Source of the DNA: a virus
Taxonomy: Duplodnaviria > Caudoviricetes
IMG/VR virus record: IMGVR_UViG_3300030118_006581
Location: 1 to 57,887 of that record
Direction: 5' to 3' (one strand)
DNA length: 57,887 nt
Shown: piece by piece, positions 16,466 through 41,417 of the stretch
How positions within the stretch are numbered: the first letter of the stretch is position 1
Layout: the number at the start of each line of letters is the position of its first letter
The notes under the pieces: model-generated
Told to the model about the DNA's origin: nothing
The model's database searches: none
The model's input: the letters and a program-made list of their open reading frames with translations, nothing else
Position numbers and translations under genes: made by a program

Positions 16466-16870
16466 TTAATTAGTCATTGTCGAAGTTATTATTAACTCAT
16501 CTTTTTCGTTAAAAGGTTGTATAGTATATTTTATAATAACTCTGACTTCATTCAATTGCAAAGTTGAGTCTTCATCACTTGTTAAAAAATCTATGTTTTC
16601 TAAAGAGATTGATGGAATATAGAATGATACCTGTTTATTGATTGTTTCTGCTATTGTTCCAAAAGTAACAGAATTAACTCCTTCAAAAAGAAATCTATAA
16701 AGACCAACTCCAAATTCGGGAACCATTGGTCTTTCGCCAGGTATCGTAAGAATAAGCATTTTTAGATTCTGCCGAAATGTTTCTTTCAGCGTTTTGTTTA
16801 ATTGATAAGGTCCGTCTGTTTTATCGTAGACTAACGGTAACCTTGGTGATATGCCTTGTAGTTTACTCAT
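16466..16870 (-). CDS. Baseplate wedge subunit, GPW/gp25 family
   Basis: QNLKMLILTIPGERPMVPEFGVGLYRFLFE signature; 134 aa; precedes gp6-like gene. Confidence 0.92.
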   Translation of the reverse strand: MSKLQGISPRLPLVYDKTDGPYQLNKTLKETFRQNLKMLILTIPGERPMVPEFGVGLYRFLFEGVNSVTFGTIAETINKQVSFYIPSISLENIDFLTSDEDSTLQLNEVRVIIKYTIQPFNEKDELIITSTMTN

Positions 16871-26315: not shown

Positions 26316-26488
26316 TATTCAGTTTCAAAAACTTGAGTCTTTACAGTTGGTGGATTTGTTACTACAACTTCACCATTTTCAACTTCCAAGTTCCAGTCAG
26401 CTAACATCTCTGTTATATCTGTTTGTTCCGCCAAACACTTTTGAAGTGTCATCAATAGCGCTCCTACAGCTTGATTTGAAAACTTCAT
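26315..26488 (-). CDS. Small hypothetical protein (57 aa), not in the ORF track
   Basis: MKFSNQAVGALLMTLQKCLAEQTDITEMLADWNLEVENGEVVVTNPPTVKTQVFETE*; AAGGAG RBS; TAATG overlaps at both ends, filling the gap exactly. Confidence 0.85.
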   Translation of the reverse strand: MKFSNQAVGALLMTLQKCLAEQTDITEMLADWNLEVENGEVVVTNPPTVKTQVFETE

Positions 26489-27480
26489 TATTCTTCTCCT
26501 TTCATATTATTAACCTGATTAATGACATTATCCCAGCCGCCTGTGAATGGAACCGCCTTATCATCAATATAAGCAAAAGCTCTTGGTTTTTCAGCAGTAA
26601 CCTTTGACACATATTGTGCCATATCATGCTTTTTAAGCCATTCCCAGACTAGTTCAGAGCCAGTTCTTCCATTTACTAATCCTCGATCTGGTTTTGCCTT
26701 ACAGGTATAAATGATGACTGTATGATCTCTAGATAGTTTTTGCAGTGCTTCCTTGGAACCCTCAACTGGGTCATCGTAGATTGTGCCGTCATGATATCCC
26801 TTTGAGCATTTGTGGATTACCCCATCAAAGTCAATACCAATATTTACCTGCTCATCTGGATAACTGTGTTTTCTGACACTTGGACCTTTCCAATTAATTT
26901 TCTCTAAGTCGTCAGGGGAATTTTTACCGATCGGAGGGCACTCCTTGCCTGAACCATGAGTCAACTGGTATTGCAGTAGCAAAGTTAAAACTTCTGCTGT
27001 GTGGTAGTATTCGGCTCCAAGAACTACTTGGGCTAATCCTTTAATTTCTTCTTCAATAGGATTAGACGTTACCAAAGCTGTCCTTAATCCGTTATCCGAA
27101 GCCCATTGAAGTGCCTTGATTACATCTTTTGATTTCCCAGACGAAGATATCCCATATACTAGAGACTTTTTCATTTGAGATTTAGTCTTAGTGCAAGTTC
27201 TTTGTTGCAGCCAAGCAACCATCCATTGGTCAAAACTTGTATCGTTAATCAAGGAAGTTGCTACTACACAACTCCCAGGACACATAGCGTTCTTTGTCCC
27301 ATTGGATAGTCTTGTCATATCTACAGCGGTGTGATCAGCAACACCCATGTTTCCGCCGTGTCCAAGAACATAGATATCATCACATTCATTATAATATTCT
27401 TGTAACTGTCTCCATTCTTTTGAGCTTATAGTTTCGTAAAATTTACTCTCTAGATTTTCAATGTCAAGTGCTGAACTCAT
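26488..27480 (-). CDS. SIS-domain sugar-phosphate isomerase (GmhA-like) fused to a HAD phosphatase
   Basis: SIS motifs VLGHGGN and GISSSGKSKDVIKAL; C-terminal HAD motifs IDFDGVI and YIDDKA. Confidence 0.8.
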   Translation of the reverse strand: MSSALDIENLESKFYETISSKEWRQLQEYYNECDDIYVLGHGGNMGVADHTAVDMTRLSNGTKNAMCPGSCVVATSLINDTSFDQWMVAWLQQRTCTKTKSQMKKSLVYGISSSGKSKDVIKALQWASDNGLRTALVTSNPIEEEIKGLAQVVLGAEYYHTAEVLTLLLQYQLTHGSGKECPPIGKNSPDDLEKINWKGPSVRKHSYPDEQVNIGIDFDGVIHKCSKGYHDGTIYDDPVEGSKEALQKLSRDHTVIIYTCKAKPDRGLVNGRTGSELVWEWLKKHDMAQYVSKVTAEKPRAFAYIDDKAVPFTGGWDNVINQVNNMKGEE

Positions 27481-28160
27481 TTAATTCCTAGCTCCTTATA
27501 AAATTCTAAAAGTCCGGTTGTATCCATTCCTAATGCTATAATACCATAATCTGAATATTTCTTTAGATATTTTTTAACTTCTGTTGGAATATGGACTGCC
27601 ATCTTTTCTTTTGGTATTAATTTTTCCATTTTCTTAATTGCGTTTAGATACAAGTTTGAACCAAAATCTCCCGGTACTCCAAGACTAGCGGATAGATCAT
27701 AAGGTCCTATCATATAATAGTCAAAATTATGACTCATTATCTCCTCTAAATTATTTACGCCATCAATAGTTTCAATCTGAGCTATAACAGAAGGTGGTTC
27801 TGATATTAAAGGTGACAATCCCCATTTATTAGCCCTGGTTAAACCAAGCCCTCTACGTCCGCCGTGTTTTGGGAATTTGCAAGAATTCATTATTTTGTTA
27901 CACTGACGTGTATTTTCAACGGTAGAAAAAATTAAACCTGTCGCTCCTGCGTCCAGACACATCCTAATGCTTGATTTTGTTGGAACCATCAATCTAACAA
28001 AACATTTCCTATTCAATGAAGTTATAGTCTGAATACAATTATAAATTGTTTCATTGTTGTAGGATGCGTGCTCTGTATCTATAACAACACCGTCAACGCC
28101 AGTGTGGCATAAAATCTCTGATACAACTGGTGATGGTATTTGTTGCCAAGCTAATTTCAT
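27477..28160 (-). CDS. HpcH/HpaI-family class II pyruvate aldolase
   Basis: IDTEH, VR, LDAGATG, AQIET, IGPYDLSASLG motifs. Start placed at ATG 28160 (MKLAWQQ), just after the upstream stop. Confidence 0.88.
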   Translation of the reverse strand: MKLAWQQIPSPVVSEILCHTGVDGVVIDTEHASYNNETIYNCIQTITSLNRKCFVRLMVPTKSSIRMCLDAGATGLIFSTVENTRQCNKIMNSCKFPKHGGRRGLGLTRANKWGLSPLISEPPSVIAQIETIDGVNNLEEIMSHNFDYYMIGPYDLSASLGVPGDFGSNLYLNAIKKMEKLIPKEKMAVHIPTEVKKYLKKYSDYGIIALGMDTTGLLEFYKELGIK

Positions 28161-28164
28161 TATA

Positions 28165-28860
28165 TTATACTTTCCTGACAAATGCGCTCGGTGCGATATA
28201 ATTTAGGTTTTCTACTTGTACGTCTTTGTCTTTAAAAAATTTGTCTACACCTTGCGATTCTGACCAGTGATGAAAAGCATATTCATCGAACACTACAATA
28301 CCACCTCTAGACACCCTATCCCAAGCAGCCTCAAGAACGTCGTATGTTGGTTGTGCTAGATCAAGATCCAAATAGAGAAGAGATATCTTTAACCCAGGTT
28401 TATTCGAAATATATTCTGGCATTGTTTTAGAAATATCACCTGCAATTAACTCATAGTCGTGATCTTGAAACCCCGCTTCTTGAATAACATTTTCAAGATA
28501 ATTTTGATAGTTATGATCGTGACTAAAATTTCTTTTTTTAAAAAGCGTAGACATCGCTAATTTATCTTGCGATGATAAAGTTTCAATCAGACTATCTGTA
28601 TCAAAAAAATCAAATCCTAAAACTTTTTTCCCAGAGTTTGGATTAAGATATTTTTTCAATTTAAGAAAAGTTAAAATACCTGTTCCCTTGAAAACACCAC
28701 ACTCAACAATATCGCCAGGAATATCTTTAACTTCATTCATCAAAAGCGTTCTAGCTAAAAGCTTCCCAAAAACCTTTGTATCATCACTTAAGATAAACCC
28801 GTTGAAACTATCAAAAAGGGATTGGCTAGTTTTTACTATTTCTAAATCTTTTATTTCCAT
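28165..28860 (-). CDS. TylF/MycF/NovP-family sugar O-methyltransferase
   Basis: PGDIVECGVFKG, GFDFF, LYLDLDL, GGIVVFDEY. Confidence 0.87.
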   Translation of the reverse strand: MEIKDLEIVKTSQSLFDSFNGFILSDDTKVFGKLLARTLLMNEVKDIPGDIVECGVFKGTGILTFLKLKKYLNPNSGKKVLGFDFFDTDSLIETLSSQDKLAMSTLFKKRNFSHDHNYQNYLENVIQEAGFQDHDYELIAGDISKTMPEYISNKPGLKISLLYLDLDLAQPTYDVLEAAWDRVSRGGIVVFDEYAFHHWSESQGVDKFFKDKDVQVENLNYIAPSAFVRKV

Positions 28861-29288
28861 TATTTAAAGTTCCCAACAAAGTCAGAGCAAATACCCTCAA
28901 GATTAGAGTCGTCTGGTATCTTTTGATCATTTCTTAATACTAGTATACCACCTTCTAATGGTTCCTTATCGGGGTAAATCCATATTTTCCCCTTGGAAGT
29001 CAATGTGTAATCATCTTTATCGTGCCAGAAACAGTGAATTTTTGGGTTTTTAAGCATTGCACTTAAAGCTTGTGAATTTTTAGCATGGCACCATAATCCT
29101 TCTTTTTCTAGAAAGCTTTCAGAAATTTTATATTCAGGATCATCATGACCAAGATAATAAACCCCCAACACATTCCAAACATCTACTTCAACATCATAGC
29201 CTGCCATTAAAGCTTCCTCAATATACTCAGGCATATTCTCTCTGTTTGTTTTTCCTTGAATGTTGCCACGATGAGCTATTAGCTTCAT
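28860..29288 (-). CDS. Short GDPD/PLC-like phosphodiesterase-fold protein
   Basis: IAHRGN...EN...GYDVEVDVW...LGHD...WCHAKN...GICSD. Confidence 0.75.
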   Translation of the reverse strand: MKLIAHRGNIQGKTNRENMPEYIEEALMAGYDVEVDVWNVLGVYYLGHDDPEYKISESFLEKEGLWCHAKNSQALSAMLKNPKIHCFWHDKDDYTLTSKGKIWIYPDKEPLEGGILVLRNDQKIPDDSNLEGICSDFVGNFK

Positions 29289-29289
29289 A

Positions 29290-30663
29290 TCATTCCTTAT
29301 AATTTCTCAGGTATGTGTCTAAATCTTCTGGTGTCCCTATACCCCACATTTTTTTGGTTGGAAAGATTTTAATCTTCTTATCATCTGCAATAGCCTCATT
29401 AAATACAGGACAAACATAAAACTCGTTATTAACCCTGATATCCTTTTCAATCATCTGTTCAGCATATTTAACATAGTCAGAGCCGTGTTTCCAATAATAA
29501 ATCCCAGTGGTAGCAATATTACTGATTGGTTTCTTTTCTGCTACTTCCGTTACATACCCATCAGGACCTAGTTTGGCGAAACTCCACTTTGGATGAGTAG
29601 CTTCAAAAGTTAACATACCACCATCGATATTATCTGCCATCATAGAATACATAAATTCATTACTGTCCCACTCTAGAAACTGGTCTGAATTTGCATAGAG
29701 TAAGGGCTCATCATTATTAATAAATTCTTTTGCTAACAGTGTTGTACAAGCAGCACCCTCTGTTAGTCCATCTGTATAAATAACCTCACACCCTGGAGAG
29801 ATCAATTGTAAAAGATGTTTTATGTTGTATCTTTCTTCATGTTCCTTGCGGACCACAAAAATATGCTGCGCATCTATATTCAAGTTTTCAACAACAAGTT
29901 GAATCATTGGCTTTCCGTTAACTTCAATTAAAGGTTTTGGAAAAGCATAGCCAGCCTTTTGAAAGCGAGAACCTTCGCCAGCCATTGGAATAAGAACCTT
30001 CATATCTCCCCCTTGCCATTTTGGTCTAGACAAAGTTTTAGGACGATTCTTCTCAATAAATCCAAAAACCTTTTCTTTTGTTACATCTTCACTGTTCATT
30101 ACACCGCATACGTGAGCGCCAGCACGCTGTGCTGCTTCCCGTCCAATATGTGAATCTTCAATAATTACAGTCTCTTGAGGTCCGACTTCCGCCTTTACCA
30201 TACATTTAAGATAAATTTCTGGATTTGGCTTAGGGTTTCTTACGTCCTGATTAGAGTAGAAAAAATCAACATACTCCATAAATCCTTTGCGCAACAAAAC
30301 CATCTTTATGGTTTCTCTGATAGAATTTGAAGCAACCGCAATTTTAAGACCCTCTTGTTTAAGGTCTCTCAACAAATTACAGATTCTTTCGTCTCGACCA
30401 TATTCATTTGATATTATATTGATTGTATGTTTTTGTTTGTTTTTCCATACAGAATGGTGACTCTCCAGAGGGAGCCCCTTCATCTCTGTGAGCATCTTTA
30501 ATTTCTTACTGGTTGGTAGTCCATCAAATGTTGATAGGTGTTCTTCTCTTTCAACAATATACTTTGGATCTACCTCTTTTAGAGAGCGGTTTAGAGCTTC
30601 ATAATGAAGTTCCCTAGCATCTACCAATACGCCATCCAAATCAAAAACTACTAATTTAATCAC
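29290..30663 (-). CDS. HAD phosphatase fused to sugar-phosphate nucleotidyltransferase
   Basis: N-terminal FDLDGVL, ASNS, KPNP, IEDS; C-terminal IPMAGEGSRF...PKPLI, NSDQ, EKKPIS, GTPEDL. Confidence 0.88.
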   Translation of the reverse strand: MIKLVVFDLDGVLVDARELHYEALNRSLKEVDPKYIVEREEHLSTFDGLPTSKKLKMLTEMKGLPLESHHSVWKNKQKHTINIISNEYGRDERICNLLRDLKQEGLKIAVASNSIRETIKMVLLRKGFMEYVDFFYSNQDVRNPKPNPEIYLKCMVKAEVGPQETVIIEDSHIGREAAQRAGAHVCGVMNSEDVTKEKVFGFIEKNRPKTLSRPKWQGGDMKVLIPMAGEGSRFQKAGYAFPKPLIEVNGKPMIQLVVENLNIDAQHIFVVRKEHEERYNIKHLLQLISPGCEVIYTDGLTEGAACTTLLAKEFINNDEPLLYANSDQFLEWDSNEFMYSMMADNIDGGMLTFEATHPKWSFAKLGPDGYVTEVAEKKPISNIATTGIYYWKHGSDYVKYAEQMIEKDIRVNNEFYVCPVFNEAIADDKKIKIFPTKKMWGIGTPEDLDTYLRNYKE

Positions 30664-31589
30664 TTCCTAAACCTTTCATTATCTTTAAATGGGTGCTTGT
30701 CAATATCTTCACACTTGTTGAGATCAAGCCAGAAATCACCCTCTCTCCAGCCAACATAGTTTTGTTCCTCAAGTGTTTCAACATCTTTTTCAAAATAATA
30801 ATATTGTATAAAGTTCGGAACTGTTGGTAAATTTGGTGGGTTATCAACAAAATCTTGAGACCATCTCGTTAACCACCCAGTATAAGCGGGCTGTGTTTTC
30901 CAAGTGTCTTTCCACTTCCAATACAAAATTTGTGATGTATGATACCAACCTTCTCTCGATATACTATTCGACTTCTCTTTTCTCCACTCAGGTTCACCAC
31001 CTTGATATTCTGATGTATCTAGTGGTAGTGCATCTTGACTGTTTAATAGTCTGCCATGGATCTTGTCATTTATTAAGGACTTTTCTTTGTTTAAGATTAG
31101 AGCCCTAATATAATAGTCAGCCTCTTTGTTTGCTGGTGTTATAAAACGCTCATCCCATAAGCCTATTCTTTTTACCGCTTCTGGTCTATAGCTAATAATA
31201 TTATCGCCCAATTGCCCTGTGACAAAAGTATACTTCTTGTGCATTTTTAAAAGATTTGTTGCCCATTTTGGGTCTAATACAATATCGTTCTGCATTGTCA
31301 CAACAATTTTTGCCTCTGGATTGTTCAAGTCCTTGAATCCATGCACAAGTGCCTGATTCCAGTTTCTTGCTAAATTACCTGTATCCCAATCAGGTCTGGC
31401 GTTGTTGTGAATTACATTTACCTTGTTTCGGAATCTTTCCTCTAGAAAAAAATCACTGTGATTGTTGATAACATTTACTTCCGTATCAGAAACAAGCGAA
31501 AAATCTGTCTTATTAAATAAGGTATCCAAGGTTTTGTTTAGTATATCTTGCCTTCTATACGTTACAATATAAATCTTGATATTTTTCAT
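30660..31589 (-). CDS. GT-A fold (GT2-like) glycosyltransferase
   Basis: IVTYRR, INN, ARNWNQAL, MQND, IGLWDERF, EADY. Confidence 0.8.
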   Translation of the reverse strand: MKNIKIYIVTYRRQDILNKTLDTLFNKTDFSLVSDTEVNVINNHSDFFLEERFRNKVNVIHNNARPDWDTGNLARNWNQALVHGFKDLNNPEAKIVVTMQNDIVLDPKWATNLLKMHKKYTFVTGQLGDNIISYRPEAVKRIGLWDERFITPANKEADYYIRALILNKEKSLINDKIHGRLLNSQDALPLDTSEYQGGEPEWRKEKSNSISREGWYHTSQILYWKWKDTWKTQPAYTGWLTRWSQDFVDNPPNLPTVPNFIQYYYFEKDVETLEEQNYVGWREGDFWLDLNKCEDIDKHPFKDNERFRK

Positions 31590-32251
31590 TTTCCATTTAC
31601 CTTATCAAACAAAGCCTCAGCAACCATGAAATCAAACTCAGTATCAACATCTACTGATTCTATATCATCCAACATAAGCGGATAAAATTTATTCCCAAGA
31701 ATATTTTTATTTTGTATCATTATTTCCCTGGGTAATATGTTTGCTGCAAAGTTCAAAGCATATACATCAGGTAAATCCTGAGATCTTGGATGATTTTTAG
31801 GATCATAGTTTATAGCTGCATTATCAAGCCATAGATACTCTCTAATATAATTAGCCGTAACTACTGAATCATATTCTTCTCTATCTTTGTATAGGTCAAT
31901 GCACTCTTGAACTGTCTCATCTTTTATAAGTGGGCTCGTTACTGGTGTCCATAATATATCCTTACAATCCAAAGAGGAAGCTAAGTGAACATATACATCC
32001 CCCATAGGAACTGTGTCACTAGCATAAAATGGATTTCTTTTCATAGTAGTCGCACCAAGAGAGTTTGCTAATTCTAACATACCCTCATCATCAGATGTTA
32101 CAACTATGTTATTAATACCACTTAATCTTGTTGCTTGTTCTATTTTCATTTGGAGCATGTTAGAACTTCCAAATGGTCTTATATTTTTTCCTGGTACACG
32201 CTTAGATCCACCTCTTACTGCAATTAAAACAGTAATATCAGTATCTCTCAT
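31586..32251 (-). CDS. Acylneuraminate (CMP-ulosonate) cytidylyltransferase, NeuA/CMAS family
   Basis: AVRGGSKRVPGKNIR, VTSD, TSPL, PRSQDLP, DVDTEFDF. Confidence 0.9.
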   Translation of the reverse strand: MRDTDITVLIAVRGGSKRVPGKNIRPFGSSNMLQMKIEQATRLSGINNIVVTSDDEGMLELANSLGATTMKRNPFYASDTVPMGDVYVHLASSLDCKDILWTPVTSPLIKDETVQECIDLYKDREEYDSVVTANYIREYLWLDNAAINYDPKNHPRSQDLPDVYALNFAANILPREIMIQNKNILGNKFYPLMLDDIESVDVDTEFDFMVAEALFDKVNGK

Positions 32252-32982
32252 AATTGACCTCCGTTTACATCAATTGCTGCTCCTGCAATATATGATGCAG
32301 CCGAAGAACATAAAAATAATATTGGTAAAGCTTGTTCTTTTGTAGTTGCAATTCTTCTGACAGGTATACTATGTTCTAGCTTTTCTATTTGCTCTGTAGT
32401 CATAGATTCTTGCAGCATCTCTGTCATTGTCTGCGAGGGGCAAACACAATTCACAAGAATATTGTGTTTTGAGACTTCATTCGACAACTGTTTAGTTAAG
32501 CCAATTATGCCATATTTACTAGACGTGTAATGAACACCACTTACAATACTTTTATTTCTTCCTGCGATTGATGAAACATTTACAATCCTGCCGAAGTTTT
32601 TTTGTTTCATTATCTCAACTGCTAACTTAGAAGTATAATAGAATGATTTAAGATTAGTGCTCATCACTCTGTCCCACTCATCACTATCAATATCTTCTAT
32701 AGGACAACACAAGTTAGTTCCAGCAACATTGATTAAAAAATCTAGTGTTTTAATCGAATCAAAAGCTAGTTTTATACTTAATTGATTTCTTAAATTACAC
32801 CCTATGTGGTGACAGCCATCTATCTTCGGATCTGTTCGTGATAAACAATATACAATTGCACCCGAATCTATAAATCTTTTGACAACCTCAAGTCCAATAC
32901 CTTTACTTCCGCCTGTAACTACAACTGTCTTGCCTGTGAAATCAAAAGATATATCATTCATCTTCATATACGTGATCCACAT
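32248..32982 (-). CDS. Classical SDR oxidoreductase (true start probably 32961 or 32967)
   Basis: TGGSKGIG, NVAG, NVSS, YTSSK (YxxxK), NCVCP, VNGG. Confidence 0.9.
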   Translation of the reverse strand: MWITYMKMNDISFDFTGKTVVVTGGSKGIGLEVVKRFIDSGAIVYCLSRTDPKIDGCHHIGCNLRNQLSIKLAFDSIKTLDFLINVAGTNLCCPIEDIDSDEWDRVMSTNLKSFYYTSKLAVEIMKQKNFGRIVNVSSIAGRNKSIVSGVHYTSSKYGIIGLTKQLSNEVSKHNILVNCVCPSQTMTEMLQESMTTEQIEKLEHSIPVRRIATTKEQALPILFLCSSAASYIAGAAIDVNGGQL

Positions 32983-33385
32983 CCGGCCTGGTTATCGCAT
33001 ATCTTACCCCTGGTTTATCTCCCACACACTTTATGTGATGCCAGACGCCACAAGGAACTACAATAATGTCATTCGTAGTAACAGTTCTTGTTCCTATACC
33101 ATCTATCCACCACTCCCAAGTTCCATCTAAAATAACCCAGTTCTCATCGGCGTCATGATGATAATGTTTTCTATTTCCTTCGCCTGGTTGTTGTTGAATT
33201 ACAACACCCCCAAACAATTCATTGTAAGCAATTCGTACAGCCCAAGACCCCATACCAAGATCTTTTCTTAATTCTTCTAGATTTACGGTTGAACAATTTT
33301 CATACTTTTTAAGTTCGGATACTGGTACACCGTCGTCTTTAAGGACACTTATAAGGTTACTATCTGATTTCTTTTTTTCACTCAT
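32954..33385 (-). CDS. Cupin-domain protein
   Basis: PGEGNRKHYHHDADENW...G...VPCGVWHHI; start set at ATG 33385, just after the upstream stop. Confidence 0.85.
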   Translation of the reverse strand: MSEKKKSDSNLISVLKDDGVPVSELKKYENCSTVNLEELRKDLGMGSWAVRIAYNELFGGVVIQQQPGEGNRKHYHHDADENWVILDGTWEWWIDGIGTRTVTTNDIIVVPCGVWHHIKCVGDKPGVRYAITRPDVDHVYEDE

Positions 33386-33386
33386 A

Positions 33387-35285
33387 TTATCTTGTCTCAT
33401 GTTTAAATTTAGGTAACCTAGAAAATTTATCTATTCTTTCTGTAACCTTTTGGGAGTATAGCATATTAATTACGTCTTCGTCAAGCTTGAACCTATCGTC
33501 TTTCATCAAAATATTTTTGCAGTGCATCATTTGCGATAATTGGTCATGAAGTATATGGTCTGGACCAAATGGAGTCCCTGATACACCGTATGTGTCAGTA
33601 TATAGTTTATTGTATTTCCCTTGATCGTTTTGTGGTATCCCAGTGTTATAAAAATCCAAACCATATACAGACAACTTAATTAAGGGATAACGAAGCAAGT
33701 GGTTCAATGCTCCATAGCCTGAATTAAAGTTTGCCGAGTGCCTTTGGAATTGTTTATTGTTGAAGTTTTCTACATGTTGTTTAGGGTAAATTTGCCAGTA
33801 AAGAGCCCATCTGTCCCAAGTACCATCTTCATTTTTTAGGTGAACAAATGGAATATCTAAAGATTTAAAAACATTTTCATAAACTTGATCGATGTATGCC
33901 CACTGATTATTTGGCAGTTGGTGGCTTACAGTATCGTTAGCAATTATAAATTTTGGTCTTTCTTCTTTTGAAATATTATTCAAATGCTCAACAATGGGTG
34001 GCCCATAATTTGCATTAAGACAACTTTGTATTATATCTGTCCGTGTGCCGAAATCTTTCTCATTGGGAATTCCGTGCTGGATTCTAACTACGACATCATG
34101 GGAGTCGATTTCTTTACCTTTACCCTGTCCATTCAGGCGAGGAGCAGGACCAACAAACGCAACACTTTTACCGTCAAGGTAATTGTACAAATCTTGATCA
34201 ACTATACATTCATTGTGAAATAAAGATTTGTGGTCTTCAAGTTTATGATAAATATCAACACACTCGTTAACTTCTATTTTTTTACCTGATATCTTATTGT
34301 TAATTTCGTTTGTTATCTCAACCCAAGGGTTACTAGTTTTCTTGAAATCTTCAAAGGTTAAGCTTTCTAGATGTTCTCTAGCTGTGCTGTACGAATCATC
34401 TTTCAGGGGTGCTATCTTTTCTTCTACTTCAAGATTTATATTTGCAAACCTCTCATGAGATAGATCAAAAAAATTCTCAATGGACTGTATGTCCAAATAA
34501 TTGTCCTGCTTTTGCATCATCTTTGGCTTTAAACCTTTTGACAAAACCAAGTTAATAAAAGTATTTTTTATATGAAGTGAATCTCTTAGCTCTTGTTGGT
34601 TACTACCGTCACCCAAAATCTTACTTTTTTTGAATGCAGGCATAATCCAAGCCCACATCTCATCCATTCGATATTTACTCCAAGCACCATTTTGATTATG
34701 TGGTGTTTCCAGATCTGTTACCCCATTATCATAAAGCATCTTATGACTACAAACAACATGCCTAAGAAAAGGAATCTCTAGAATATTAAAAAGATGACAA
34801 GCATCGACACCACCACCAAACCTAGTAACCATTGGAAAGAACCAACTCATTAACGAATGGTGAACTATTTTTAAACCACAATGTGTAAAAGGTATTACTG
34901 AATGGTCTGCTGAATTGTAATACTCTTTATTTTCAGCAAAAGGAGTTATTAGTCCTTTACCTGGATAGTATGTTAAGACAGCGGGTTCAAAATCCTGTAG
35001 GTCTTCACAGATCTGATCTAGTGCGTTTTTATCTCTTTGAGGTCTTAACACATAATCATAATCTACAAACGCATAATATTCGTACTCCTTTGGTACTAGT
35101 TCGGCTAAAATATTTCTAGTTTCTACCCAGGTTGTATTAGGGCAAAACTTAATGGCGTCTTTATTTTCCTTATCGTGGGTTACAAAGTAAAAATCACTAT
35201 GTTCTTTATCTTTAAATAACTCAACATGATCTTTATTAGGTTCTTCAGGAGTTACTTGCAGAACACATAATCTCTTCTTAATCAT
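33387..35285 (-). CDS. Two-domain glycosyltransferase: N-terminal GT-A-like domain plus C-terminal GT29 sialyltransferase-like domain
   Basis: N-terminal ETRN...FVDYD (DxD). C-terminal VAFVGPA...GKEIDSHDVVVRI...DFGTRTD matches sialylmotif L; NSGYGAL...LSVYGLDFY matches motif S; late HDQLSQ resembles motif VS. Confidence 0.75.
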   Translation of the reverse strand: MIKKRLCVLQVTPEEPNKDHVELFKDKEHSDFYFVTHDKENKDAIKFCPNTTWVETRNILAELVPKEYEYYAFVDYDYVLRPQRDKNALDQICEDLQDFEPAVLTYYPGKGLITPFAENKEYYNSADHSVIPFTHCGLKIVHHSLMSWFFPMVTRFGGGVDACHLFNILEIPFLRHVVCSHKMLYDNGVTDLETPHNQNGAWSKYRMDEMWAWIMPAFKKSKILGDGSNQQELRDSLHIKNTFINLVLSKGLKPKMMQKQDNYLDIQSIENFFDLSHERFANINLEVEEKIAPLKDDSYSTAREHLESLTFEDFKKTSNPWVEITNEINNKISGKKIEVNECVDIYHKLEDHKSLFHNECIVDQDLYNYLDGKSVAFVGPAPRLNGQGKGKEIDSHDVVVRIQHGIPNEKDFGTRTDIIQSCLNANYGPPIVEHLNNISKEERPKFIIANDTVSHQLPNNQWAYIDQVYENVFKSLDIPFVHLKNEDGTWDRWALYWQIYPKQHVENFNNKQFQRHSANFNSGYGALNHLLRYPLIKLSVYGLDFYNTGIPQNDQGKYNKLYTDTYGVSGTPFGPDHILHDQLSQMMHCKNILMKDDRFKLDEDVINMLYSQKVTERIDKFSRLPKFKHETR

Positions 35286-36265
35286 AATAAACCTTTTGTA
35301 CCATTTTCATCAAACCATTTGTCATACCACTCAATTGTTTTTGAGAGTCCCTCTTCCAAATTGACCACTGGCACATAAGAAGTTAAACTTTCTAACTTAG
35401 ATGTATCGGGACATCTTCTGTCCACGCTTCCCCTTGGGGCATCTCTAATATCATATTCATCATCGTTATTATACCAGAGGTTTACTTTTTTTGCAAGATC
35501 AATAATTTTTATTTCTTCCTTGTCGTTCCCAATGTGAAAAATGCCGCTCTCATTGCACTTAGATAATTCATAAGTTGCTTTTACTGCATCATCAATATAA
35601 CAAAAAGCTCTGGTCTGTTTATCACCAAATATCTTAAAAGGCATTTCATTATTTTTGGCTCTCAGGACAAATTGAGGTATTACGTGCTTGGTACCCATCC
35701 TTGGTCCATATATGTTGTGATACCTAATAATTTGATAATCTAATCCAAATTGCTTACTAAAACTGTTTAGAATAATTTCACAGGCCAACTTACTACCGCC
35801 GTATGAATATCTCTCATTCATAACATCTTCAATTGTACAATGAATTTTTTCATCAGTTGGCACCAAGCTTTGATCTCTCTGGATTGATCCAGCATAGACT
35901 TCTGAAGAGGATGTAAACACGAATTTAGTTTTAGATTCTTTATATTTCTCTAGCAATAACATCGTGCTTTTTATAGCAACTTCCATTACTGTATAAGGTA
36001 TTGTATAAAAATTTTCTGTTCCATTTATAGCCGCCAGATGAAATATTACATCATAGTCATCATCCAGTTTTTGAAGATCTTCAACCTTCGTAAGGTCAGC
36101 TTCGATAAACTTAGTGCCATCTATTTTTAAAATATCCTCTATGAAGCTATCAACCTGTCCTCTTTTGTTGTTGTCACATAGATGCGTCTCGTTACCTTGT
36201 TGGGCACAATAACGGGACAGATAAGACCCTATAAATCCACTGGCTCCCGTTACTAATATCTTCAT
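35282..36265 (-). CDS. NAD-dependent nucleotide-sugar epimerase/dehydratase/decarboxylase (extended SDR)
   Basis: TGASGFIG, HLAA, SSSEVY, YGGSK, RYHNIYGP, TRAFCYIDD. Confidence 0.92.
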   Translation of the reverse strand: MKILVTGASGFIGSYLSRYCAQQGNETHLCDNNKRGQVDSFIEDILKIDGTKFIEADLTKVEDLQKLDDDYDVIFHLAAINGTENFYTIPYTVMEVAIKSTMLLLEKYKESKTKFVFTSSSEVYAGSIQRDQSLVPTDEKIHCTIEDVMNERYSYGGSKLACEIILNSFSKQFGLDYQIIRYHNIYGPRMGTKHVIPQFVLRAKNNEMPFKIFGDKQTRAFCYIDDAVKATYELSKCNESGIFHIGNDKEEIKIIDLAKKVNLWYNNDDEYDIRDAPRGSVDRRCPDTSKLESLTSYVPVVNLEEGLSKTIEWYDKWFDENGTKGLL

Positions 36266-37059
36266 TATTTTCTCATCCCATCATATACAGTTACTTTATA
36301 TTTGCTATTCTCTTCTAAAATCATCTTAAAAAAACCAATATCAAGGTTTTTTTCCTCAACCAATTTTGATATGGCTAGAGTATCCTTGGGCAAACAAACT
36401 CCACCAAATCCTCTGAAATTGTCATTACACTGAAGGTATGAATCATTTATATGATCTCTTAGCACTAAGGAATTTTTAATGTCTGTATAAGAAGCGTCTA
36501 GTTCTTTGCAGACTTCATAAAAACTGTTTGCAAGAGTTATCAAAGTTGCATTGTAAATATTGTTGTAATATTTTACTAGTTCTGCCTCTGTCCTGGATAA
36601 TTTTCTAAACTGCGAAGGATATGATCCGTGGGCTTCTTTTATCTTTTCATAACATTCCTCACAATCAGTTCCGATTACGCACAAGTCGTGATTTTCAATA
36701 AAATCAATAACTGCACATCTTTCCCTCAAGAACTCAGGAACAAATGCTATTTTTAGCTGCGGGTATTTGTCCGCTAGTTTCTGTGTTGTACCAGGAGAAA
36801 CAGTAGATTTTATAACAACAATCCCAGAATAATTATTAGATTCTAGATTTACAATAGATTCCTCTACGATAGTAGTGTCACAAAAGCCATTCTCATCTGG
36901 GGGAGTGGGTACACAAATAAAACAGATATCACTGCCAAGAACATCTTCAAACTTTGACTCCTTTGCAGGATCGTAAAAGCTCATTTTATGCCCAAGTTCT
37001 AAAAAACCTGTATAAACAGCGTTGCCAACAACACCAAGTCCCAAAACTCCTATTTTCAT
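36265..37059 (-). CDS. UDP-glucose/GDP-mannose 6-dehydrogenase family (short form)
   Basis: GLGVVG, CVPTP, KSTVSPGTT, PEFLRE, AELVKY, GFGGVCLPKD (catalytic Cys). Confidence 0.9.
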   Translation of the reverse strand: MKIGVLGLGVVGNAVYTGFLELGHKMSFYDPAKESKFEDVLGSDICFICVPTPPDENGFCDTTIVEESIVNLESNNYSGIVVIKSTVSPGTTQKLADKYPQLKIAFVPEFLRERCAVIDFIENHDLCVIGTDCEECYEKIKEAHGSYPSQFRKLSRTEAELVKYYNNIYNATLITLANSFYEVCKELDASYTDIKNSLVLRDHINDSYLQCNDNFRGFGGVCLPKDTLAISKLVEEKNLDIGFFKMILEENSKYKVTVYDGMRK

Positions 37060-37646
37060 TTAAAAACCTCCATCTTTCTCAAATCAGGCCAGTCATCTAA
37101 AGTCCATTGCCTAGGTGTTGACTCTTTTGCCGCTGGTAGTTTTTCTAGTCCAAGTTTGGCTGTTTCTGGAGTCATATAATAATGGTATCCTACTGTGCTT
37201 ATATTTTGAGATGCCCAAGGGATGTCTGGCTCCCTACCATCATAAGACATTTTTTTCAATTTTTTATAGTCTTCCAAATTATCGCATAATATTACACCGC
37301 CACGACCTAAAGCTAGATGCTTTCTGAACTGAAAACTTACGCACATAAAAGTGTTTGGTATATAACTATCCTTTTTCCAAAGAACGGCAGCATCAATTAT
37401 ATTTGTGCCTCCAAGATAGTAATAATCAAGCCAATCTTCCTCTTTCCACTCAAGTTCTATATTTAACTTTTTGGATAAAAGAGGGATAGAAATATAAGTC
37501 TGAGTTGGGACAATAATCTTATCTACGTTTTTATATCGTAAGCAAAGTTCTATCCCGTGTGTACAGCAATCAACTGCCACAGCGTATGGAGCACCAAAAA
37601 AAGATGCTATCTCATTTTCAAATTCTTTTACTACCTCAAAACTCAT
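37056..37646 (-). CDS. DegT/DnrJ/EryC1/StrS-family PLP sugar aminotransferase (short form)
   Basis: FENEIA...YAVAVDCCT, IDAA, SFQFRKHL (PLP Lys), GRGG, GYHYYM; start at the ATGA overlap 37646. Confidence 0.82.
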   Translation of the reverse strand: MSFEVVKEFENEIASFFGAPYAVAVDCCTHGIELCLRYKNVDKIIVPTQTYISIPLLSKKLNIELEWKEEDWLDYYYLGGTNIIDAAVLWKKDSYIPNTFMCVSFQFRKHLALGRGGVILCDNLEDYKKLKKMSYDGREPDIPWASQNISTVGYHYYMTPETAKLGLEKLPAAKESTPRQWTLDDWPDLRKMEVFK

Positions 37647-38182
37647 TTTTTGCACTCCACGTTTAAACTCATCAAAGTTCCATTTTCCTTATCCATATGG
37701 GGTAAATATGCTTGAGAGTGATCATCGAATTTTGAATGGGAGGTATCTCTCCAGTCATATTTCTTAACCTCACTAAAGCCTGAATCCTCTAGCTCTCGCT
37801 TAAGCGATGGAAAATCATAAACTGTCCTATGATATATTGTCTCTTCGCCCATGGGCATCCTGCCATATAAAAGCCCAACAAATTTGTCGAGAGAATAACC
37901 CTCTTCCGTGTATAGTCTTGAAATTTCTGTAAAGTTAGGAACTGCGACTCTCAATGTGCCACCAGGTTTTAATATTCTTCTCCATTCACCAAGGACTGAT
38001 GGGATTTCCTGCCTATCAAAATATTCTACAACGTGTGAGGCATATATTAAATCGACTGTATTCTCACCAAATTGACTTAGATCAACAATGGATTCATAAT
38101 CTAGATGATCGTAATCTCCAGAATCTATATGAATCCATTCTTTTCCAAAATCTCTCCAGCCGCATCCCATATTTATTTTCAT
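37643..38182 (-). CDS. Class I SAM-dependent methyltransferase
   Basis: INMGCG, HID, IYASHVVEY, RILKPGGTLRVAVP. Confidence 0.88.
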   Translation of the reverse strand: MKINMGCGWRDFGKEWIHIDSGDYDHLDYESIVDLSQFGENTVDLIYASHVVEYFDRQEIPSVLGEWRRILKPGGTLRVAVPNFTEISRLYTEEGYSLDKFVGLLYGRMPMGEETIYHRTVYDFPSLKRELEDSGFSEVKKYDWRDTSHSKFDDHSQAYLPHMDKENGTLMSLNVECKK

Positions 38183-38595
38183 TATAAATACCTTTTATCC
38201 AGTGATTGACCTTCATAAGGTCCGGTCTTGTATTCATAGACAATCGTATCATCCTCAAGTATCTCATAAGTATGAGCGCCTTCAAGTGTAAAACTAGCAT
38301 CACCAGGTTTTAAGATAGGTGTTGCCAGGATTGTTTCGTTGTCTATGTCATACATATAACACTTAACACTGCCTTGTATTACAATCCAAGATTCTTGTGC
38401 TATTTGTTCTTTATATGTTCTTTCTTTTTTTATATGGTAATGTGGTTGAAAATTTTTACCTTGTTCAAGTTTCATAGTTGCACATTGAATGAATTGGTCT
38501 TCAGGAACTATATCTGTTCTACCATCCACATCCTCTAATCTATTAATCATATGAAGTAGGAGGTCTGGGTTTATCTTTGAATAGATCTTTAACAT
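38182..38595 (-). CDS. WbuC-like cupin-fold protein
   Basis: PHYH, QESWIVIQG, LKPGD, GAHTYEILED, EYKTGPY. Confidence 0.75.
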   Translation of the reverse strand: MLKIYSKINPDLLLHMINRLEDVDGRTDIVPEDQFIQCATMKLEQGKNFQPHYHIKKERTYKEQIAQESWIVIQGSVKCYMYDIDNETILATPILKPGDASFTLEGAHTYEILEDDTIVYEYKTGPYEGQSLDKRYL

Positions 38596-39284
38596 TTTAT
38601 CGCCTCCTCAATACTCATTTTTTTAAAACACTTTAGATTAGATATGGGGCTGCAATTTACCACTTCTATATCAGCGTGTGCAGCCCTATATGCAAACATA
38701 TTCCAAGTTGGCATATGAAATTTAATACCATCAGGAATATTATATTGATCACCTTTTTGTTGATAGTCATCAAACCAATAGTTCGGGTTCTTATCTGGTG
38801 TTTTATCCATAATCAGCCCAGGTCCGTCTTTTTTACTGCCGTCAACAAATTCAACATAGTTACAGTCTACACCCAAAAGGATAATTTTTTTATACCCCAT
38901 ACAAACAGCCGCCGAACAAGCGTTAGCACCACTATTACCATTATCGTGAAACTGAGTAAAACAATCTTCTGAATGATTCATCTTGTTGGTGCTACCATAC
39001 GGTAGCATATTTACAAATTGGAAATTATCTTTGTCACTTAAGTTCCTTATGTAAAAATGCTTTTTAAATTTACCTGAATCGATAAGATCAATGAAGCTTT
39101 GTTGGTGATTATCTGTTACACGATAATCAAAGCAGCCGTGATAGGTAGGCCACCAGTCTAAACGAGGATAGGCTCGATAGGCAGAATTTAATCCAAATGT
39201 GTCAATACCATCTAGCATAGAAAAATCAACATCCTTAAGGGATGGACCATTTCCCATAATAACTATCGTTTCACTCTTAGTCAT
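38589..39284 (-). CDS. Maf/DUF115 (CstII/GT42-like fold) protein, possible ulosonate transferase
   Basis: VIMGNGPSLK, FGLN, MGYKKIILLGVDC, VVNCS. Confidence 0.7.
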   Translation of the reverse strand: MTKSETIVIMGNGPSLKDVDFSMLDGIDTFGLNSAYRAYPRLDWWPTYHGCFDYRVTDNHQQSFIDLIDSGKFKKHFYIRNLSDKDNFQFVNMLPYGSTNKMNHSEDCFTQFHDNGNSGANACSAAVCMGYKKIILLGVDCNYVEFVDGSKKDGPGLIMDKTPDKNPNYWFDDYQQKGDQYNIPDGIKFHMPTWNMFAYRAAHADIEVVNCSPISNLKCFKKMSIEEAIKC

Positions 39285-40128
39285 AAAAACTCCAAAATGT
39301 AGAACACCTTGTGTTCATATGTTCTCGACAAGATTCAGCACTATTAGCCCAAGATTCATATCTGTGTTGGACGTTTTCATTTAATATAGTTTCACACCCT
39401 AGCATTTGCGCTTCCATAACAAGCCTAGGACAAGTATCTGCACCATCAGGTAAAAATATAAGACCCTTTGAAGTAGACAATTTTATTAGTAATTCGTGAT
39501 AAGGTAAACCAGCAACTACTTCTGCCTCTAATGAGTTATCTTGCGCATACTTGACACATTTTTCATAACCCTTAATCCAAGAGTTTGTTCTAACAATAAG
39601 ATATTTGTCGTTTTTTTCATTGTCTCTTATCGAGTCAATAAATCTTAAATCACCCTTTGAAAAAACAGAATTTAAAGTTTCTGTATTTTCTTCTTTGATT
39701 GTCTTAACCCTCTGTAAGAAGATATTCTTTTGCGCATCGCTCATAAACCAGATTTTTTTTGCATACCCATAAAAGGCTAAATTTATCTTGTTCTCTTTTA
39801 TATCTGCACAATCACACTCCTGACCTGTTTGAATTCTGTGAAGATCCAAAGATCTGAATTTACAGAATTTGTAGTCGTACTCGACTATAGAATAATTTAC
39901 ATTTTTAATCAAATGAAGTTTTAACCTGTAATCAAGCGAAACAAAATTTAATACAACCCAGTGAGCTTCTTTATATTGGTTGATTACAGAGCTTGTAAGC
40001 TCAGCACATCTTATCTTTATTATGTTTTTATTATTGGGTCTCCCTTGGATAATAGCCTCCGAGGTAAGCTCCGCTCCACCAACATAATCTTCAGCAAAAG
40101 CATCAGCTAAGAATATCATAAGACTCAT
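39277..40128 (-). CDS. GT-B fold glycosyltransferase-like protein
   Basis: GGAELT N-terminus, KG, DTCPRLVMEAQMLGC (D-x7-E variant of the GT4 motif). Confidence 0.75.
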   Translation of the reverse strand: MSLMIFLADAFAEDYVGGAELTSEAIIQGRPNNKNIIKIRCAELTSSVINQYKEAHWVVLNFVSLDYRLKLHLIKNVNYSIVEYDYKFCKFRSLDLHRIQTGQECDCADIKENKINLAFYGYAKKIWFMSDAQKNIFLQRVKTIKEENTETLNSVFSKGDLRFIDSIRDNEKNDKYLIVRTNSWIKGYEKCVKYAQDNSLEAEVVAGLPYHELLIKLSTSKGLIFLPDGADTCPRLVMEAQMLGCETILNENVQHRYESWANSAESCREHMNTRCSTFWSFYD

Positions 40129-41417
40129 ATTAAATCATCCAAAAGTGAATCCACTTCATCCTCATATTCTTGAACTGTTTTTAAATACGGAGAAAGTTCT
40201 TCGTTATTGAAATCCTTATACATACCCTTAATAACTTTTAGATTGTTTTTTTCTCTAAGATAATTTGAAAGATTTTTAGAATCTTCTAGGAACGATTCTT
40301 TATTCCTTCGGATAAAATTAAGAGACTTCTTAAAGGAGTCTTCTTTTGGATAAGCCCAAATACAAGACTCAGTAATTAAACCAGGCATCAAATGTTGTTG
40401 TTCTACAGGTTTTAAGTCATAAGCTACTTTGATAAAGTGGCTTTTAAGCTTAGTATTTCCAGCCCTGTTTTTACTGGGGGCTCTAAGAAAATCCAAATGG
40501 CCAGACCAGTTTGTTGCTATAATTGGAATACCGTTACAAGCTGCTCTAAAGATAGGTATACCAAAGCCTTCGCCATGTGTGGCTGTAACATAACAGTCAA
40601 TATAGTCTGGATTATATAATGACTCCATCTCTTGTTCTGTTAAACTACCGTGAACGAAATAAACCTTACACTTTCTACTAGGCGCTATAGCTTGAAGAGT
40701 TGCTTCAATATCCTGCTTTGTTGCATAGAAATCCATAGTACTATTATTATGCATATGTGTTTTTACAATAAGTCCTACTTCTTCATCATCTTTAAAGTTC
40801 TCTATAAACCATTTTAATGTCATCCTAAAGTTTTTTCTTGGTGCCATTTGAAGAACAGTAAGAAAGTTAAACTTTGTTTTAATATTCATACCTTTATAGA
40901 TGTCTATTTGTTCCACAGTATCATCGTGTCCAAATGGTATAACTGTGATTGGACACGAAATCCCAACACCGTTTTCATCTTTTGTATTTTTAAGGTTTTC
41001 TTTTGCGTGATTGGATACAACCAAGATATGCTTCATAGTGTTACATTTAGCAACCCATTCCGATGGTGCAAATGTTGTTTCTAAAGCGGCCGTGACACCT
41101 ATGTCGTGTGGGGACATAGGCTGGAATTCATTAGGTGGTCTCACTTGGTAAGTGGCAGTAAATAAGTCATTTATATTAATATTACCTTGAGCATCCTGTC
41201 GAGATACAAAAAGCCGATTTGTTTTGTCAATAAGATTTTTATACTTTTCGTAATATTTTGAACTACGACTAGTTGCAGCCCACTGAGTGTCTTGGACATA
41301 GACTTCTATTGTGTCTTGTAGTTCCAACAGTGAATCCAGTAATGTTCTTGCGTGTTCACTGTAACCTGATAGGTTACAAACGGGACCAACCACTAAGATT
41401 TTAGGTTTATTAATCAT
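40125..41417 (-). CDS. GT4-family glycosyltransferase
   Basis: SGYSEHAR, RKN, GEGFGIPIFRAACNGIPIIATNWSGHLDF. Confidence 0.88.
   Translation of the reverse strand: MINKPKILVVGPVCNLSGYSEHARTLLDSLLELQDTIEVYVQDTQWAATSRSSKYYEKYKNLIDKTNRLFVSRQDAQGNININDLFTATYQVRPPNEFQPMSPHDIGVTAALETTFAPSEWVAKCNTMKHILVVSNHAKENLKNTKDENGVGISCPITVIPFGHDDTVEQIDIYKGMNIKTKFNFLTVLQMAPRKNFRMTLKWFIENFKDDEEVGLIVKTHMHNNSTMDFYATKQDIEATLQAIAPSRKCKVYFVHGSLTEQEMESLYNPDYIDCYVTATHGEGFGIPIFRAACNGIPIIATNWSGHLDFLRAPSKNRAGNTKLKSHFIKVAYDLKPVEQQHLMPGLITESCIWAYPKEDSFKKSLNFIRRNKESFLEDSKNLSNYLREKNNLKVIKGMYKDFNNEELSPYLKTVQEYEDEVDSLLDDLI

Follow-up and report, generated by a model that had tools for sequence, protein, structure and literature searches.

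The window analysed here is a 57.9-kb fragment (57,887 nucleotides) given as IMG/VR virus record IMGVR_UViG_3300030118_006581, which is estimated to hold 32% of the genome. The gene in question is an open reading frame (ORF) at 33387-35285 on the minus strand (stop codon 33387-33389) that encodes a predicted two-domain glycosyltransferase of 632 amino acids (aa). It overlaps the gene upstream by 4 nt and the cupin gene downstream by 14 nt, and because of these overlaps with both neighbors we place it inside an operon. The protein comprises an N-terminal GT-A (GT2-like) domain (aa 1-285; 34431-35285), a helical linker (aa 286-337; 34275-34430), and a C-terminal GT29-like sialyltransferase-fold domain (aa 338-632; 33390-34274), all on the minus strand. 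The C-terminal domain was delimited by PDB structure search, Foldseek, and a profile search of the PDB; the N-terminal domain by structure alignment (range 1-291 in the model); and the linker by the secondary structure of the model, where it falls outside both sets of structural alignments. An initial annotation of this DNA had described sialylmotifs fused to a second glycosyltransferase domain at 33387-34200; that range does lie within the ORF, yet it covers only the C-terminal (3′) part of the gene. The AlphaFold2 model of the whole 632-aa protein reached a mean predicted local distance difference test score (pLDDT) of 91.3 and a predicted template modeling score (pTM) of 0.89, and the C-terminal domain modeled alone reached a pLDDT of 86.6. 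The whole-protein pTM suggests that the two domains are held in a fixed arrangement in the model. Elsewhere, the record carries genes for a gp25 baseplate protein, PhoH, and an M23 peptidase, and its baseplate wedge protein is about 30% identical to counterparts from Flavobacterium and Microcystis myophages; the baseplate, PhoH, and peptidase genes agree with a T4-like phage.

PF00777 (Glyco_transf_29) was the sole Pfam family found on the protein at E ≤ 10 (E 3.1e-6). It covers aa 374-419 and scored 27.2 bits, above the curated cut-off of 23, so that the Pfam search proposed in the initial annotation did recover GT29. PHROGs and NCBIfam gave no match for the protein, a full-length match to the GT29 catalytic-domain profile was not obtained, and a search of PDB sequences with the protein alone returned just ST6GalNAc2 (E 0.67). 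With a profile built from 37 full-length family members, the top six of eight PDB matches were GT29 enzymes (best E 0.015, motif L only). A second alignment, A2, joined 51 diverse stand-alone relatives (23-61% identical) to the C-terminal domain, giving 52 rows. Its profile matched the GT29 enzymes ST6Gal1 (1e-8), ST3Gal1 (6.2e-8), ST6GalNAc2 (3.1e-5), and ST8Sia3 (3.4e-5), and also the GT42 enzyme CstII (1ro7; 1.7e-5, profile positions 21-221, from motif L to the VS region); the best 14 of the 18 matches were all sialyltransferases. The alignment of the A2 profile with ST6Gal1 extends from motif L to the start of motif S.

Independently of Foldseek, the model of the C-terminal domain was aligned with VIA to 48,161 representative PDB chains. 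The four top-ranked chains were all GT29 enzymes: ST3Gal1 (2wnf; Z 13.3 over 194 aa at 3.4 Å), ST6GalNAc2 (6apj; Z 12.7), ST6Gal1 (4js1; Z 12.0), and ST8Sia3 (5bo8; Z 11.3). They were followed by the GT42 enzyme Cst-I (2p56; Z 10.0), an MptE-type HPPK (8sd5; Z 9.1), Maf (5mu5; Z 8.4), and SteA (9hmy; Z 8.1), below which the scores fall to Z 5.3. Foldseek ranked the matches in the same order, with E values from 2e-6. The modeled domain has the GT-A-variant sialyltransferase fold, and since the sequence and structure rankings both put GT29 first, that fold is nearest to GT29; profile and model comparison thereby identify the C-terminal half as a sialyltransferase-fold domain of the GT29 type. 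The comparison of a predicted structure with ST3Gal and ST6Gal enzymes, which had been suggested as a check, thus came out in favor of GT29. A chance origin of the motif was considered and is ruled out by the Pfam score, the A2 profile matches, and the structure ranking. The same ranking bears on the possibility that the domain is not a glycosyltransferase and is instead an MptE-like kinase, another enzyme of this fold, or an inactive scaffold. The fold is indeed common to the MptE-type HPPK and SteA, and two motif features described below depart from the animal enzymes (Gln in place of the VS Glu, and no motif III found). Against this, the GT29 structures match clearly better (Z 13.3 versus 9.1), sialyltransferases occupy the top 14 sequence matches, the MptE-like family PF01973 gave no match on the protein at E ≤ 10, the histidine at the VS position is invariant, and the domain is tightly linked with cytidylyltransferases. 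We regard a function outside glycosyl transfer as highly improbable.

Within the domain, the equivalent of sialylmotif L (aa 374-424, SVAFVGPAP...IDSHDVVVR...DFGTRTDIIQSCLN; 34014-34166, minus strand) is recognized by PF00777 and by residue alignments to ST3Gal1, ST6Gal1, and ST6GalNAc2. It holds the peptide VAFVGPAPRLNGQGKGKEIDSHDVVVRIQHGIPNEKDFGTRTD (residues 375-417; 34035-34163, minus strand), in which motif L had first been noticed, and the PF00777 score and the GT29 matches in the PDB uphold that identification. An S-like segment (aa 519-546, NFNSGYGALNHLLRYPLIKLSVYGLDFY; 33648-33731, minus strand) was located by profile alignment with ST6Gal1, in which the family consensus NTGlaailiLL stands opposite SSGMLGIIIMM; the S motif proper reads NSGYGALNHLL...VYGLDF (aa 521-545), with the motif cysteine missing. 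A VS-like motif, HDQLSQ (H580 to Q585; 33531-33548, minus strand), was identified by conservation. The conserved patterns are VGPAP...ID-x-x-D-x-V-x-R...D-x-G-x-R-T-D for motif L, N-S/T-G...G-x-x-F for the S-like motif, and H-x4-Q for the VS-like motif. D397, G413, G542, F545, and H580 are invariant in all 52 diverse sequences, while K373, V378, G379, P380, I393, D394, R401, D417, G523, L531, Y562, Q585, and D602 are conserved in at least 90% of them. The downstream S-like and VS-like motifs of the initial annotation are therefore real conserved elements, with H580, G542, and F545 present in 52 of 52. In animal enzymes, the VS consensus is given as H-x4-E, with the histidine as the catalytic base, and that of motif III as (H/y)-Y-(Y/W/F/h)-(D/E/q/g) (PMC8433944). 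By its conservation, H580 is the putative catalytic base here. Equivalence of the VS motif is not transferable through the cellular relative at locus L051: this protein matches PF00777 over positions 40-265 of 272, but phmmer against the PDB aligned just its motif L, and a BLASTP comparison with the window domain gave a heavily gapped, unreliable alignment.

The cysteines of the protein lie at positions 7, 48, 93, 136, 163, 179, 342, 360, 422, and 589. The S-like motif (aa 519-546) and the head of motif L contain none of them, which makes the animal-type disulfide linking L and S impossible; the absence of these cysteines had been seen correctly from the start. The highest 19-residue Kyte-Doolittle mean is 1.10, and no hydrophobic segment or anchor was found in the protein, which should therefore be soluble and cytoplasmic, judging from its sequence. 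The features of animal GT29, an L-S disulfide and a type II membrane anchor, are thus both missing, and these two observations together bear out the cytoplasmic location that had been proposed.

A comparison with known enzymes identifies the domain as a stripped-down, prokaryote/virus-type relative of the GT29 sialyltransferases. The animal enzymes ST3Gal1 (2wnf/2wnb), 4js1, 6apj, and 5bo8 resemble it with Z 13.3-11.3 over 194-213 residues, with a motif L that aligns residue by residue, and with the conserved His at the VS position. Animal GT29 enzymes are described as inverting, metal-independent CMP (cytidine monophosphate)-sugar transferases (PMC8433944). The window protein differs from them in its low identity (12-21%), in lacking the type II anchor, the disulfide, and the VS Glu, in its unmatched motif III, in a long family-specific insert between L and S (aa ~425-515), in its predicted cytoplasmic location, and in its donor, which is probably not N-acetylneuraminic acid (Neu5Ac). 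The GT42 enzymes Cst-I and CstII share the GT-A-variant sialyltransferase fold (2p56, Z 10.0; CstII profile match 1.7e-5) and are likewise soluble or peripheral bacterial enzymes without disulfides, but they rank below GT29 (27.8 versus 38.4 bits, and lower Z), and CST-I (PF06002) has no match on the protein. Maf/MptE-like enzymes (PF01973), transferases of nonulosonic acids to flagellin, which use CMP-pseudaminic acid (CMP-Pse) or CMP-legionaminic acid (CMP-Leg) in the cytoplasm on a protein acceptor, belong to the same fold superfamily (5mu5, Z 8.4); PF01973 itself, as noted, leaves the protein unmatched. On this evidence from profiles and models, we predict that the domain works like a GT29/GT42-type CMP-sugar transferase.

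The closest precedent is that of Petit et al. 2018 (Sci Rep 8:2946, PMC5811610), who described 21-23 bacterial and one archaeal GT29-like sequences, many of them marine, that carry motifs L, S, III, and VS and have neither the anchor nor the L-S disulfide cysteines, and who proposed a bacterial origin of eukaryotic GT29. Disulfide-free GT29 outside eukaryotes has thus been known since 2018. Compared by description, the C-terminal domain has the same pattern; unlike those sequences, the window gene is phage-borne, fused to an unclassified GT-A domain, and has Gln for Glu in VS. The words "virus" and "phage" never occur in the main text of PMC5811610, and in the literature as judged by titles and the starts of abstracts we found no printed phage-encoded GT29, which is not proof of absence. 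What appears to be new, in that we did not find it in print, is the phage-borne branch of GT29, its fusion to an unclassified DxD GT-A domain, and the constant position it holds within a conserved ulosonic-acid cluster of phages.

Relatives of the gene are numerous and largely viral. We found 165 homologues at E ≤ 0.001; among the 120 listed, lengths are 616-673 aa and identities 46-95%, and they come largely from marine metagenome collections. The Atlas cluster of the protein has 193 members, 99% of them viral, and a tblastn search of 50,697 GenBank phage records gave no match, although this collection may lack near-identical records. An exhaustive search of a metagenome and genome library with the family profile returned 2,297 proteins at E ≤ 0.001, among which each domain also occurs alone and in other fusions. 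PF00777 matches 46 of 49 relatives of the C-terminal domain at E ≤ 0.001, and 42 of the 49 reach at least 23 bits. Its fusion partners include a cytidylyltransferase (in protein P0226 and at locus L042), GT2 or GT7C domains (P0177, P0235, P0250, P0264), methyltransferases, and further GT29-like domains in tandem repeats. A scan of genome contigs with a 14-row alignment and one motif pattern confirmed 28 loci in cellular genomes of diverse bacteria and archaea, labeled Clostridia, Limnochordia, Gammaproteobacteria, Bacteroidota, Dehalococcoidia, Poribacteria, Rhizobiaceae, Streptomyces, a metagenome-assembled genome (MAG) of Pacearchaeota, and others; the same pattern confirmed 187 stretches in IMG/VR, some of them on giant-virus MAG (GVMAG) contigs. 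A word-indexed search for short forms of the C-terminal domain yielded just fragments of the same family. With 2,297 library proteins, 28 bacterial and archaeal loci, and the disulfide-free bacterial GT29 of PMC5811610, the label "eukaryote-type" that the initial annotation gave to these motifs is misleading.

Two observations made during these scans are recorded here. The GT29-like domains on GVMAG contigs are at L077, L107, and L117 (IMG/VR), and the L077 gene lies among ankyrin-repeat genes. At L032, a Clostridia MAG, an ORF at 8130-8921 (minus strand) matches the Pfam family "Sea anemone cytotoxic protein" (actinoporin-type; 1.2e-25); it lies 1.5 kb from the GT29-like gene and is probably unrelated to it.

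The N-terminal half has the GT-A fold. In the whole model it aligns with TarP (6hnq; Z 14.6 over 209 aa at 4.0 Å, VIA-align), and TarS, the fucosyltransferase WrtF, and RmlT also match at Z about 14; across these enzymes the scores are Z 14.6-13.9 over ~200-215 residues, with a DxD motif in common, but identity is only 7-14%, with no Pfam GT2 match. The metal/nucleotide-sugar motif is D75-Y-D77 ("FVDYDY"; 35055-35063, minus strand), placed after strand E70-74 in the model. Neither D75 nor D77 varies among the family members (37 of 37) or among stand-alone relatives (29 of 29), and R57 is likewise invariant. The proposed fusion to a second, DxD-containing glycosyltransferase domain is thereby borne out by a GT-A fold at Z 14.6 and an invariant D75/D77 pair. 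Pfam gave nothing on this domain at E ≤ 10, PF00535 (Glycos_transf_2) included, and an N-terminal-domain profile found nothing significant among PDB sequences (best E 0.63, an unrelated protein). A language-model atlas puts the domain near mostly viral clusters of the DUF5672/DUF707 type and near GT2. It is also known as stand-alone proteins of ~250-300 aa. PF00535 occurs in just one of 34 relatives, the multi-domain P0147, with its best stretch at residues 476-600, far from the N-terminal-domain-like region at 1661-1930. In 4 of the 34 relatives (P0125, P0147, P0187, P0202) an MptE-like domain, which has the sialyltransferase fold, replaces the GT29-like one, so the N-terminal domain has been partnered repeatedly with this fold. 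P0147 itself is a metagenomic protein of 1,932 aa with four GT2 stretches, a GT7C domain, an MptE-like domain, and the N-terminal domain at its C terminus; it also matches an intein-splicing domain below the cut-off.

The gene belongs to a co-directional glycan cluster (26488-42673, minus strand) delimited by Pfam, NCBIfam, and synteny in 29 related IMG/VR loci. In ascending order, the cluster encodes a SIS isomerase, an HpcH aldolase, a TylF methyltransferase, a HAD/beta-phosphoglucomutase-like domain fused to a sugar-1-phosphate nucleotidyltransferase (HAD-NTP transferase), a GT2-like protein, a cytidylyltransferase, an SDR, a cupin, and the target; these are followed by a LegB-like dehydratase, a short NDP (nucleoside diphosphate)-sugar dehydrogenase, a 199-aa LegC-like protein, a methyltransferase, a WbuC cupin, an MptE/CST-I-like protein, an unknown protein of 283 aa, and two GT4 proteins. 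Directly downstream of the target are the cupin (32954-33400), the SDR, and the cytidylyltransferase (31586-32251, minus strand). The last is of the CMP-ulosonic acid synthetase type (CTP_transf_3, 56.5 bits), and its best NCBIfam model is PseF (6.8e-24, below the cut-off of that model). We counted tblastn homologues at E ≤ 1e-5 within 8 kb in the 29 loci, a set that was not dereplicated and holds several near-duplicates. The cytidylyltransferase, the MptE-like protein, and the WbuC cupin each recur in 28 of 29, the HAD-NTP transferase in 26, the LegC-like protein in 25, the GT2-like protein in 24, the HpcH aldolase and the cupin at 32954-33400 in 22 each, the SIS isomerase in 21, and the SDR in 17. 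Of another 66 viral loci, whose GT29-like domain is distant, 39 have a cytidylyltransferase homologue within 5 kb and 10 have a NeuB homologue. After hand dereplication to 47 loci, which still include three near-identical pairs, these counts are 26 (all 26 on the same strand as the GT29-like gene) and 8.

Because of this linkage (28 of 29 and 26 of 47) and of the fusions of the two domains in P0226 and at L042, the donor class is probably a CMP-activated ulosonic acid, as read from the gene neighborhood. The sugar itself cannot be named, since neither a NeuB- nor a KdsA-type synthase was found among the window ORFs and the record holds only ~32% of the genome. The synthase varies by cluster, with NeuB in L040 and a KdsA-like DAHP_synth_1 protein in L085, and given this variation the acid sugar is probably not the same in every cluster. 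The set in the window (LegB-like, LegC-like, PseF-like, HpcH aldolase, and SIS) would fit a Pse/Leg-like acid or a Kdo-like one (Kdo, 3-deoxy-D-manno-octulosonate), and on either route a pyruvate aldolase would stand in place of a synthase dependent on phosphoenolpyruvate (PEP). An HpcH aldolase gene occurs next to a cytidylyltransferase in L079 (4227-5608) and L089 (5747-7143), and in the window cluster (26488-28181 together with the SIS isomerase, minus strand). HpcH/HpaI class II pyruvate aldolases thus recur beside cytidylyltransferase and GT29-like genes in unrelated viral loci, and their recurrence hints that the activated acid sugar is made by an aldolase-based route independent of PEP.

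Several further features of these neighborhoods were noted. In L031 and L034 (bacterial MAGs), two or three GT29-like genes stand in tandem ahead of a 2-hydroxyacid dehydrogenase, a cytidylyltransferase, and a HAD hydrolase; the L034 tandem has a YheC/D ATP-grasp gene directly upstream. In L075, L082, and L094 (IMG/VR), a cytidylyltransferase (cupin-fused in L075 and L082) lies beside the GT29-like gene, with an SDR, a dehydroquinate-synthase-like protein, and a class III aminotransferase as neighbors; we take this gene set to resemble the 8-amino-Kdo (Kdo8N) pathway of Shewanella (KdnA/KdnB). The window cluster has a second sialyltransferase-fold gene (38589-39284, minus strand), whose 231-aa product scores 31.1 bits as MptE-like (cut-off 34.6) with a weak CST-I match and may transfer a further ulosonic acid or else link the first one to protein, as Maf does. 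The target profile matches once in the record and misses this MptE-like protein; hhalign likewise gave no sign that the C-terminal-domain profile is related to it (probability 0.3%), or the N-terminal-domain profile to the GT2-like protein of the cluster (0.1%). The 199-aa LegC-like protein (37056-37655, minus strand) matches parts of DegT/LegC aminotransferases, which normally have ~360-380 aa. It is 36-82% identical in 25 of the 29 loci, and because it is conserved despite the partial match it is probably a real short protein and not a recent truncation. Close relatives of the LegB-like dehydratase occur only in L017 and L019 (60-62%), with 23-28% identity in 11 other loci. The 264-aa NDP-sugar dehydrogenase, which has N-terminal and central domains only and is short for its family, is likewise restricted to these two of the 29 loci. 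Together the two genes (35282-37059, minus strand) have the look of a variable cassette that was inserted immediately upstream of the target.

Taken together, we propose that the gene encodes a soluble bifunctional phage glycosyltransferase that combines GT29-type transfer of a CMP-ulosonic acid with a GT-A transfer, and we put the probability of this reading at roughly 60%. The cytidylyltransferase next to the target would make a CMP-activated 2-keto-3-deoxy (ulosonic) acid. The C-terminal domain is predicted to transfer this acid with inversion, with His580 as general base and with no need for metal or a disulfide, and the N-terminal DxD domain would add an NDP-activated sugar to the same growing glycan, the fusion thereby making two neighboring linkages. 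From the fusion, joint or sequential action of the two domains is a reasonable inference.

Several points weigh against this proposal. The PF00777 match spans just profile positions 56-103 of 272 (48 positions), that is, motif L, and the MptE kinase, a non-glycosyltransferase, uses the same fold. The VS position has Gln (Q585, at least 90% conserved) where animal enzymes have an invariant Glu; the placement of H580 at the catalytic His, made by sequence conservation, is putative; and motif III has no clear match in the protein, the conserved Y558 and Y562 downstream of motif S being candidates only. The synteny counts, for their part, come without a random-locus control, and no NeuB- or KdsA-type synthase is among the window ORFs. 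Finally, 4 of the 29 related loci have the N-terminal domain with no C-terminal domain within 8 kb, so the activities are separable; three further loci have a strongly diverged C-terminal domain (~30% identity) and one shows two separate alignment pieces. From these N-domain-only, diverged, and split loci, we conclude that the two halves are separable modules.

The acceptor can be narrowed less well. As a sub-case of the proposed bifunctional transferase, the cluster might decorate proteins of the phage's own virion (capsid, tail, fibers) in the cytoplasm before assembly and give it an acidic sugar coat. Such decoration agrees with the lack of transmembrane-like segments in the cluster ORFs, bar one weak hydrophobic window inside the SDR, and with Pfam and NCBIfam annotations of the cluster, among which there is no flippase, polymerase, or polyprenyl-phosphate (initiating) transferase. 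It also agrees with gene order elsewhere. L040 (1529-8919) carries capsid, NeuB, cytidylyltransferase, methyltransferase, GT8+GT29 fusion, and head-tail connector genes; L042 (4095-7926) carries capsid, HAD, and the GT29-like+cytidylyltransferase fusion; and L085 (28-6921) carries portal, Clp protease, capsid, KdsA-like synthase, GT29-like, and cytidylyltransferase genes. In L078 and L083, a DUF6260 protein, which in L078 also matches Linocin_M18 and is read as capsid-like, is encoded 1-2 kb upstream of GT29-like proteins of 1,008 and 1,224 aa. Such head-module cases, viral or proviral, make up 2 of the 12 genome loci and 3 of the 13 viral ones for which neighbors were scanned. The window cluster itself abuts baseplate genes (gp25 at 16466-16870; baseplate wedge), and mycobacteriophages are an established case of virion glycosylation (Freeman et al. 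2023, as cited in PMC12619734 and PMC12801897). On the other side, the cluster is not adjacent to the capsid gene in the T4-like group, no acceptor motif or glycoprotein was identified, and 10 of 13 viral and 10 of 12 genomic loci have no structural gene within 5-6 kb, where sugar genes only or nothing recognizable were seen. We hold virion decoration as a tentative reading, at somewhat short of even odds. Three very large ORFs flank the baseplate genes (2911-9480, 9507-13166, and 16863-22685, minus strand; 2,189, 1,219, and 1,940 aa), and a Laminin_G_3 domain is present in only one of them; they are probably fiber or baseplate-periphery proteins and are possible glycan acceptors.

The position of the cluster, between the baseplate/fiber block and PhoH, lends itself to another reading, in which the enzyme acts on lipid-linked or envelope glycans of the host and the cluster rewrites a surface polysaccharide (O-chain of lipopolysaccharide, capsule) during infection, for example to block superinfection. 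By analogy, this position resembles the hypervariable "host recognition cluster" of pelagimyophages, whose glycosyltransferases are read as host O-chain modifiers (PMC7029224), and a host-surface role has been given for such clusters in pelagimyophages and cyanomyophages (PMC7029224, PMC12801897). In a cellular setting, the GT29-like gene at L051 (Autumnicola tepida) belongs to a polysaccharide cluster that also has a Bac_transf initiating transferase and two GT4 genes, and soluble glycosyltransferases can work at the cytoplasmic face on host carriers. The membrane step is not encoded in the phage cluster, however, a lytic T4-like phage has little time for envelope remodeling, and GT29-like genes recur in the head modules of other phages. 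A host-envelope acceptor is, in our view, rather unlikely.

DNA is a third candidate acceptor, by analogy with T-even glucosylation and other glycosylation of phage DNA. Phage glycosyltransferases that hypermodify DNA with diverse glycans have been described (Pyle et al.). The phage is T4-like, and all the cluster enzymes are predicted to be cytoplasmic, both of which would suit such a role. However, the window, which covers about 32% of the genome, showed neither a hydroxymethylase nor a base-modifying gene, and the six glycosyltransferase domains with their sugar-tailoring enzymes look like an oligosaccharide pathway. We know of no transfer of a CMP-ulosonic acid to DNA, and we consider DNA very unlikely as the target.

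GT29 makes all animal sialoglycans, and the origin of the family is debated. A large phage-borne branch would widen GT29 beyond the 21-23 bacterial sequences reported in 2018. At its broadest, the finding could mean that tailed phages, abundant marine T4-like ones included, routinely coat their particles with acidic ulosonic-acid glycans through soluble GT29-type enzymes that lack disulfides, with the sugar of the present lineage made independently of PEP by an HpcH-type pyruvate aldolase in place of a NeuB/KdsA synthase, and that the large viral and prokaryotic GT29-like pool, rather than eukaryotes, is the home of the family and a plausible source of its eukaryotic members; this is a speculative picture that we think unlikely. 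With no need for disulfides, an anchor, or glycosylation, the enzyme should express in Escherichia coli, which animal GT29 enzymes do poorly, and it may be of use in the synthesis of sialosides or of other ulosonic-acid glycosides. From the cluster, an aldolase-based route to a CMP-activated sugar can be suggested. In several phages, a trio of GT29-like protein, cytidylyltransferase, and synthase recurs beside capsid genes and points to acidic-sugar decoration of virions, which, if true, would add a little-explored layer to the interactions of phages with hosts and grazers.

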